A DNA stretch of 40,520 bases from the sequence record PP079210. The stretch is one strand, 5' to 3'. Shown one piece after another: positions 1,917 through 2,008 of this stretch (position 1 is the stretch's first letter; each line of letters opens with the position of its first letter). The position numbers were made by a program, and so were the translations under genes. The stretch comes from Escherichia phage phiYIO1-1. Under the pieces are notes generated by a model. It had not been told where the DNA came from, searched no databases, and was given only the letters and a program-made list of their open reading frames with translations.

Positions 1917-1939
1917 ACTTAACTATCACTATAGGACTC
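1917..1939 (+). promoter_or_regulatory. Phage RNAP promoter immediately upstream of gene 1
   Basis: TTAACTATCACTATAGGACT matches the window consensus CTAAACTATCACTATAGGGA found at 10 other sites; T7-type core CACTATAGG. Confidence 0.7.
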
Positions 1940-2008
1940 AAGGTCTAAGACTCCAAGTGAAAGACCAAAGAGACTTTAAGTGAAAGACTAATAACAAGGA
2001 CTTTAAGT

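Follow-up and report, generated by a model that had tools for sequence, protein, structure and literature searches.

Here, we propose that the 23 bp at positions 1917-1939, directly ahead of gene 1, are a genuine and conserved promoter for this phage's own single-subunit RNA polymerase (RNAP), a conclusion drawn from the promoter set of the genome and from comparison with relatives. We further propose, with considerable confidence, that this promoter is functional in a particular sense: it would place the RNAP gene under the control of its own product and so make RNAP synthesis self-sustaining. The first-pass annotation had noticed a consensus-like phage promoter about 70 nt ahead of the gene 1 start codon; the site is there, and the exact distance is 75 nt. 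That it is active in vivo we infer from its sequence and from the company it keeps.

The window, by which we mean the whole stretch of DNA analysed (40,520 bp), belongs to the T7 supergroup and is the genome of a Kayfunavirus (K1F-like). Over the 1 kb surrounding the promoter, it is 96-98% identical to K1F, vB_EcoP_F and phiHAO2-2 and, to the same degree, to many more Escherichia, Salmonella and Citrobacter kayfunaviruses. Mapped with the proteins of Ro45lw, the genes follow the usual T7 order (Table 1), with replication, structural and packaging genes 3' of the gp3.5 homologue. The gene 1 RNAP is 93.7% identical to the Ro45lw RNAP and 64% identical to T7 RNAP, and its specificity loop reads RLNLMFLGSFNLQPT. 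As regards the other transcription signals of the early region, a TE is annotated in EcoDS1 at the position equivalent to the one listed here, a promoter scan found no equivalent of the sigma-70 'promoter C' ahead of gene 1 near 1850-1950, and no terminator-like hairpin was found between 1934 and 2009.

Table 1. Features of the window that bear on transcription of gene 1 (positions counted from the first nucleotide of the window).
Feature	Position	Strand	Remarks
Host-RNAP early promoter	448-484	+	35/37 identity to the 'host RNAP promoter' annotated at 469-505 in EcoDS1
Second host promoter candidate, TTGACA-type	589-627	+	matches at only 23/39 positions
gp0.3	808-1152
0.38-like (gp0.38-like) early ORF	1651-1911	+	stop codon 6 nt ahead of promoter position -17
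Phage single-subunit RNAP promoter, 23 bp (-17 to +6)	1917-1939	+	sequence ACTTAACTATCACTATAGGACTC
Predicted irregular hairpin in read-through (host-RNAP) RNA	1923-1986	+	folding prediction
5' leader of the phage-RNAP gene 1 transcript, 75 nt	1934-2008	+	reiterated GACTYYAAGT-type modules
Direct repeat AAGTGAAAGAC, 11-mer	1955-1965 and 1978-1988	+
Direct repeat GACTTTAAGT	1972-1981 and 1999-2008	+
Shine-Dalgarno AAGGA	1996-2000	+	8 nt ahead of the gene 1 ATG, read from the sequence
Gene 1, T7-type single-subunit RNA polymerase, 893 aa	2009-4690	+	ORF
Next phage promoter, phi1.1-type (core 4998), then directly a canonical T7/T3-type RNase III hairpin (5010-5062)	4993-5062	+
Textbook RNase III sites elsewhere in the window	5010-5062, 12358-12412, 36476-36530
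Ligase gene	end at 6568
TE-like hairpin and T-run	6578-6605	+	3' of the ligase gene; end of the host-RNAP early unit
gp2 homologue	7696-7851
gp3.5 (lysozyme) homologue	9504-9959
Core positions of the 11 phage promoters	1922, 4998, 6656, 7855, 10203, 17126, 19947, 20946, 25354, 32630, 39959	+

The site is intergenic, lying between the 0.38-like ORF and gene 1, it points in the same direction as the genes, and the genome also encodes its cognate RNAP. Position +1 falls on G1934, and the ATG of gene 1 stands at 2009. Its core is an exact match to the 14-nt motif ACTATCACTATAGG, which has 8 exact copies genome-wide (11 when up to 2 mismatches are allowed), all of them on the + strand and standing ahead of gene blocks, and at the gene 1 site the exact match extends over 18 nt. 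When up to 3 mismatches are allowed, 13 matches are found against 3.4 expected, a number that none of 100 shuffled sequences reached. In a weight matrix covering -17 to +6 and built from the other ten sites, with the gene 1 site left out, the gene 1 site scores 30.3 bits; 11 sites reach 30 bits or more, as against 17.2 for the best position of the genome outside this set and a background mean of -27. The shuffles and the leave-one-out score together rule out a chance match. Judged by position relative to homologous genes, the ten later sites correspond to phi1.1, 1.6, 2.5, 4, 6.5, 9, 10, 13, 17 and OR.

Two further properties of the gene 1 site may be noted. Neither the core search nor the matrix scan found a phiOL-type site left of 1917, and because the clade lacks phiOL, the gene 1 site is the leftmost phage promoter of the genome. 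Its initial transcribed sequence is GGA (GGACTC), shared with the sites at 4998, 6656 and 7855 (early and middle genes) and also with those preceding gene 9 (19947) and gene 17 (32630); a GGG start is found at phiOR and at the sites preceding genes 4, 6.5, 10 and 13. Since its transcript starts with GGA and not GGG, the gene 1 site resembles a T7 class II (early/middle) promoter.

The suggestion that the phage RNAP could transcribe its own gene is supported by comparison with Ro45lw, whose RNAP has been assayed in vitro and found to have the minimal promoter ACTTAACTATCACTATAGGGA, on which it initiates at the G that follows TATA (PMC12272871). Positions 1917-1935 of the window are identical to this minimal promoter from -17 to +2, with AC at +3/+4 in the gene 1 site as against GA in the assayed Ro45lw promoter. 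The specificity loops of the two RNAPs differ by conservative changes only (M/L, R/K, T/S), with no difference in the RLN and SFNLQPT contact segments.

The position of the site is conserved as well as its sequence. In the curated record of EcoDS1 (NC_011042), an orthologous 'phi' promoter is annotated at 2244-2266, likewise between gene 0.38 and gene 1; all 23 of its 23 positions are identical to the window site, the 74 nt of leader compared, which run beyond the ATG, are identical too, and nothing of substance differs between the two loci. K1F, PE3-1 and Sparklingdew have the same site as the window. The site is present in K1F-type loci, although the K1F records do not annotate it; the PE3-1 record labels it 'host RNAP promoter', and the Sparklingdew paper places one copy of an 18-bp repeat (CTWAACTATCACTATAGG) at the 3' terminus of the gene before the RNAP gene. 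Overall, a site was found at this position in 24 of 24 Kayfunavirus and Caroctavirus loci (IMG/VR sample) and in 6 further GenBank phages, and it was absent from all 4 of the T7/T3-like loci retrieved. In the Caroctavirus CR8, the record has a 'predicted promoter' at 3356-3378 ahead of gene 1, which agrees with the window in position and logic, being the first phage promoter of a genome without phiOL. CR8 differs in promoter class and in the RNAP specificity loop, and its leader is not alignable with that of the window.

These differences between relatives are themselves informative. We derived the promoter set of each relative from that relative's whole genome. GW1 and EcpYZU01 have the class ACCCTCACT(A/G)TAGG genome-wide, and their gene 1 site belongs to their own class (ACCCTCACTATAGG), not to the K1F class. 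CR8 has AAGGAAGGTACACTATAGG at all 11 annotated sites, that of gene 1 included, and the latter is a perfect match to the CR8 consensus from -17 to +2. The RNAP loops are RLN..SFNLQ in this phage and Ro45lw, RLD..TFRLQ in GW1 and EcpYZU01 (as in T3), and RIK..VQYRP in CR8. Three promoter classes therefore pair with three loop types, the specificity region (-12 to -8) tracks the loop, and the gene 1 site follows in each case. According to established work on T7 and T3, residues equivalent to T7 N748 and R756 read -11/-10 and -9, exactly the positions that differ between the promoter classes seen here. A non-functional look-alike would not follow three specificity switches. Two points weigh against the proposal: the difference at +3/+4 from the assayed Ro45lw promoter, and a T>A change at -2 that, in one subgroup (Ro45lw, Dev2 and Pisces), is carried by the gene 1 site alone, away from the consensus of the same phage. 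In view of this change, the site may be under weaker or mixed selection, for example for RNA structure. A search of the literature for transcript data or mapping in this phage or any Kayfunavirus brought up no relevant study. That the site is a chance or decayed promoter-like sequence without activity is hardly credible, and the comparative data effectively refute it: the match is exact over 18 nt, the site is kept in every clade member examined and changes together with three RNAP specificity classes, and the same -17 to +2 sequence is active in vitro with a 94%-identical RNAP.

In light of this site being a promoter for the phage RNAP, how might it act during infection? We envisage that host RNAP would start at the left-end promoters (about 448-627) and transcribe rightward through the early genes towards TE, and that the first gene 1 mRNA would be its product. 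Once present, the phage RNAP would initiate at G1934 and make an mRNA comprising the 75-nt leader, gene 1 and the genes downstream. Because no terminator-like element lies between, phage RNAP that initiates at G1934 can go on to transcribe gene 1. RNAP synthesis would from then on sustain itself independently of host RNAP, and it would continue after the gp2 homologue had shut off host RNAP, as that protein should. The role of gp2 is here taken from the T7 annotation. A brake would be expected in the gp3.5 lysozyme homologue; T7 lysozyme inhibits T7 RNAP (PMC10134795). Positive feedback at gene 1 and its size, use of the promoter in vivo and its strength, and the parts played by gp2 and gp3.5 are all what we infer from this arrangement. 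T7 class II promoters are weaker and more lysozyme-sensitive, and by analogy the gene 1 promoter should be so as well. In T7 itself, transcription by host RNAP alone suffices for RNAP.

The arrangement is the converse of that in T7, which according to the first-pass annotation has no dedicated phage promoter directly ahead of gene 1. This is correct: in the T7 record, the E. coli promoter C (3113) is the only promoter that precedes this gene there, and phiOL lies at 405. T3 has promoter C and RNase III site R1 ahead of gene 1, with phiOL at the far left. The annotations of T7, T3, BA14 and K11 show no phage promoter in the gap between gene 0.7 and gene 1 and phiOL in all four, and the MmP1 annotation shows no phage promoter before phi1.1 and none before gene 1. 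T7, T3, BA14 and K11 otherwise share the plan of the window (host promoters, early genes, gene 1, phi1.1-type promoters and TE) and, as is predicted for the window, have a structured element just ahead of gene 1. In Kayfunavirus and CR8, by contrast, phiOL is lacking and the first phage promoter stands before gene 1. From phiOL, too, phage RNAP might in principle transcribe through into gene 1.

More distant phages have the same layout. In the Pseudomonas T7-like phage LUZ100, the promoter phi1 lies directly upstream of the RNAP gene, with a transcription start site mapped by ONT-cappable-seq, and an explicit positive-feedback model has been put forward in which read-through by host RNAP gives the first RNAP (PMC10134795). 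In LUZ100, a MarR-like repressor together with a terminator upstream is believed to control the promoter within a lysogeny switch (PMC10134795), whereas no repressor, integrase or intervening terminator was seen in the window. In the Vibrio phage phiA318, the phage promoter phi-A8 lies upstream of the kinase and RNAP genes, 'suggesting autoregulation' (PMC4099482); unlike the promoter in the window, it precedes a kinase gene as well as the RNAP gene. Both phages place a phage promoter before the RNAP gene as the window does, in sequences unrelated to it, and for both the first RNAP is attributed to read-through by host RNAP.

The same circuit has also been built artificially: Dubendorff and Studier reportedly engineered in 1991 a T7 'autogene', that is, the T7 RNAP gene under a T7 promoter, and the design has found later uses. 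As in the window, an RNAP gene stands on its cognate promoter and is primed by a little initial RNAP. The autogene is synthetic (in a plasmid or in the cytoplasm), whereas the circuit proposed here would be natural and part of a lytic programme, with gp3.5 as a likely brake. Of the features of a natural RNAP 'autogene', the window has a cognate promoter directly upstream of the RNAP gene, a 75-nt leader with no terminator-like site, and an independent host-RNAP route to the first RNAP (the 448-484 promoter and TE), whose function is assigned by homology.

The leader between promoter and gene 1 had been described at first pass as containing two direct repeats, of which one was read correctly. 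GACTTTAAGT does occur twice, and its second copy, the last module of the leader, forms the spacer between the Shine-Dalgarno sequence and the ATG. The other had been given as the 12-mer TAAGTGAAAGAC, but this is present once only, at 1977, one base having been misquoted; because a C precedes the first copy, the repeated unit is the 11-mer AAGTGAAAGAC and not the 12-mer. The two copies of this 11-mer belong to a 21-nt imperfect repeat (1948-1968 and 1971-1991) with 86% identity. An exact 11-nt direct repeat within a 78-nt stretch turns up in 0.35% of dinucleotide shuffles, so the leader repeats are not due to chance. Tandem Repeats Finder called no tandem array in the leader. The leader also contains a 15-nt ribosome-binding block, AGGACTTTAAGTATG, that is identical to the block before T7 gene 1.1.

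It had further been suggested that the repeats may form a processing or regulatory structure, and this idea finds weak support, in one kind of transcript and not in the other. Read-through RNA made by host RNAP (1921-1988) is predicted to fold into a modest, irregular hairpin with a minimum free energy of -17.4 kcal/mol (z = -2.59; an equally stable fold was reached by 2 of 200 shuffles). Its predicted basal stem pairs UCACU at 1926-1930, which is promoter -8 to -4, with AGUGA at 1979-1983, within the second copy of AAGTGAAAGAC, and its predicted inner stems are AGG/CUU, CUC/GAG and GGUCU (1942-1946) with AGACC (1962-1966), with the T7-type RNase III motif GACUCAAGGUC in the 5' arm. Because the promoter core is the 5' arm of the hairpin, the hairpin would exist only in read-through transcripts. 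In RNA initiated at the phage promoter it is truncated (-9.0 kcal/mol), and the leader so initiated (1934-2020) folds no better than shuffles (z = +0.43).

Might the conserved sequence then act mainly at the RNA level, as the equivalent of the T7 and T3 RNase III site R1, with the promoter secondary to it? The early polycistronic host-RNAP transcript would in that case be processed just ahead of gene 1. Of the alternatives to self-transcription this one survives best, and we nonetheless consider it unlikely. It agrees in position with T3 R1 (2908-2956, 20 nt ahead of the ATG), GACUCAAGGUC characterises the 5' arm both in canonical T7/T3 sites and in the three canonical sites of the window, and the strength of the predicted read-through fold is matched by equivalent hairpins in three diverged leader types, the same closing stem being predicted independently in Ro45lw-, Kc166A- and GW1-type leaders (z -2.3 to -2.7). 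In Ro45lw, Dev2 and Pisces, moreover, the T>A change at -2 combines with a 1-nt deletion downstream to give a perfect 11-bp basal helix.

A canonical T7/T3 R site, however, consists of the 5' arm ACUCAAGGUC, a 9-11-bp upper stem, an asymmetric internal loop, the 3' arm GGCCUUUAUGAUU and a lower stem, a layout seen in the three textbook sites of the window and in the T3 sites as annotated. We rejected a canonical site ahead of gene 1, where only the 5' arm is present: the upper stem has 5 bp (GGUCU/AGACC) and the canonical 3' arm (UGGCCUUUAUGAUUA) is missing. The hairpin also loses distinction when folded in longer context (1890-2030; z = -0.73), and it was not found in the leaders of EcpYZU01 or CR8. 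Across 10 distinct leaders, RNAalifold detected no compensatory pairs or covariation, its sole consensus being a weak long-range pairing of +3 to +12 with the Shine-Dalgarno region (-3.1 kcal/mol); the 5' arm of the basal stem, being the invariant promoter core, cannot covary. A search of Rfam gave no family, the sole match being a sub-threshold chance hit to a snoRNA model (E = 0.34). Nor can RNA structure explain why -12 to -8 switch with RNAP specificity. With the 3' arm and the long stem missing, no compensatory pairs, and the stem absent from EcpYZU01 and CR8, we rate an R1-like role as rather unlikely; on the folding predictions, processing of this kind would concern host-RNAP transcripts only.

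A reading that joins promoter and hairpin, and which we rate as slightly less probable again, is that embedding the promoter in the 5' arm gives rise to two isoforms of gene 1 mRNA, so that the switch of polymerase would change the processing and translation state of the message. Early host-RNAP transcripts reading through the site would contain the complete hairpin and be processed at it, the hairpin serving as an R1-like RNase III site; RNA made by the phage RNAP would start inside the hairpin, at G1934, and have an open, A-rich leader. The Ro45lw subgroup would, through its change at -2, have traded promoter strength for a perfect stem, and the same module might also replace phiOL as an entry or origin element.

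This last point leads to another alternative, in which the site acts mainly through its position and not through feedback on gene 1. Being the leftmost phage promoter, it would take the place of the phiOL that the genome lacks, either as the take-over point for RNAP-driven internalisation of the genome or as a promoter that forms, with an AT-rich stretch, a replication origin of the kind seen at T7 phi1.1A/B or T3 phi1.05. The lack of a phiOL-type site left of 1917 fits this proposal, as does the lack of an annotated one in EcoDS1 or CR8, and in each of T7, T3, BA14 and K11 phiOL is present and a site before gene 1 is not. As in T7/T3-type origins, the promoter is followed by an AT-rich stretch; the leader (+1 to +75) has 37% GC and 43% A, which places it in the lowest 2% of the 75-nt windows of the genome, and its GC content is the second-lowest of the 11 promoter-downstream regions, after the leader at 17126 with 35%. 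In the T3 record the primary origin is placed immediately downstream of phi1.05, and the best match of the leader in the whole T7 genome is the leader between phi1.1B and gene 1.1 (global z = 6.3; local score 58 against 39 for the next best).

The likeness to the T7 origin region lies mostly in the 15-nt block AGGACTTTAAGTATG, however: without it the core scores 31, and unrelated T7 regions score 35-39. We therefore rejected homology of the leader to the T7 primary-origin region, the core not being distinctive in the local scan of the T7 genome, and because most of the signal is a shared ribosome-binding block we have downgraded this idea to a low-probability rival. Genome entry, for its part, could be served by the second phage promoter at 4998, which is also upstream of TE. 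A positional role is in any case compatible with feedback on gene 1; as the main role of the site we think it improbable.

Self-transcription of gene 1 is accordingly the reading that we prefer, and much of it has precedent. A phage promoter before gene 1 is specific to this clade but normal within it, and annotations of it already exist (EcoDS1, CR8); as it is conserved and annotated in relatives, the promoter is real but ordinary for its group. Self-transcription of an RNAP gene has likewise already been proposed in print for LUZ100 and phiA318, and a T7 specialist would not be surprised by any of the results given here. The only residue that is even mildly novel is the layout of a promoter inside a hairpin, together with its variant in the Ro45lw group.

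The main value of these findings is in correct annotation, since most Kayfunavirus records, both of those for K1F included, do not mark the promoter. They also mean that T7 is no template for early regulation across the T7 supergroup, and the K1F/CR8 layout predicts that RNAP synthesis continues past the shut-off of host RNAP. This is of relevance to the modelling and engineering of K1F-type phages (for therapy against K1 E. coli) and to the use of the K1F and Ro45lw RNAP/promoter pairs; K1F RNAP/PK1F pairs work as orthogonal expression systems (PMC12218169). In addition, the three-way co-variation of promoter class and specificity loop provides a clean natural data set for the rules of RNAP-promoter recognition.

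The specificity loop of the phage RNAP and the promoter class change together, both inside and adjoining one genus. This is based on a comparison of the part of the window RNAP corresponding to T7 residues 739-770 with the RNAPs of relatives that have a switched loop (L037, L038, and L036). The paired loop/promoter switches amount to a small, naturally occurring collection of data on the rules of recognition. In RefSeq, these T7-type RNAPs of relatives carry the name "N4-like RNA polymerase", which we consider an annotation problem, as is the label "host RNAP promoter" given to the gene 1 phage promoter in the PE3-1 record.

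In the subgroup consisting of Ro45lw, Dev2, Pisces, EcL30g, and phi1_146013, the gene 1 promoter reads CACTAAAGG, with an A at -2. This A is restricted to the gene 1 site, the other promoters of these phages being CACTATAGG, and together with a downstream 1-nt deletion it gives a perfect 11-bp stem (UAUCACUAAAG/CUUUAGUGAUA). The Ro45lw record has no promoter annotation at its gene 1 site, and promoter features are absent from both K1F records in the region examined.

In the leader, RNAalifold on 10 leader types returned a sole consensus, in which window positions 1936-1945 (ACUCAAGGUC, +3 to +12 of the phage-RNAP transcript) pair with the SD-proximal GGACUUUAAGU at 1998-2008. The consensus pairing energy is weak (-3.1 kcal/mol) and, since both sides are invariant, there is no covariation. 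The leader repeats also contain two tiny GTG-initiated frames, which arise because the repeat duplicates the start-codon region with GTG replacing ATG; both are probably meaningless.

Elsewhere in the window, three hairpins of canonical T7/T3 RNase III type (predicted energies of -17.7 to -19.5 kcal/mol) share the architecture of the annotated T3 R0.3, R0.5, and R1.1 sites, and are absent from the annotation of the related records examined. The first lies directly 3' of the phi1.1-type promoter at 4998. The phi6.5-type promoter at 17126 is followed, after 24 nt, by a weak second promoter-like site, the sole position scoring between the promoter class and background.

Features of the window and its relatives
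Feature	Position	Strand	Detail
Tandem repeat near left end	234-336		14-nt GTCCTACACCTACA, ~7 copies
GTG-initiated frame	1958-1984		GTG AAA GAC CAA AGA GAC TTT AAG TGA
GTG-initiated frame	1981-1992		GTG AAA GAC TAA
RNase III-type hairpins (n=3)	5010-5062, 12358-12412, 36476-36530		GACUCAAGGUCA...UGGCCUU(U/C)AUGAUUA
Weak promoter-like site	17150	+	17.2 bits
-2 A promoter variant	L035 (Ro45lw) 2405-2418; equivalent position in L020-L025, L043-L046		
Loop RLN..SFNLQ			promoter class ACTAT
Loop RLD..TFRLQ			promoter class ACCCT (T3-like)
Loop RIK..VQYRP			promoter class GGTAC

At the left end, the opening 40 nt have no second occurrence further along the window, and thus the sequence as given holds a single terminal-repeat copy. 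No phiOL-type phage promoter was found left of gene 1 (1-1916), as in EcoDS1 and CR8, whereas T7, T3, BA14, and K11 have one. The closest look-alike, TTGACTATAGG at 448-458, has only the -5 to +2 core in common and is a host promoter -35 region. The 14-nt tandem repeat has counterparts in CR8 and Sparklingdew, which carry related ACCTACAGT-type arrays.
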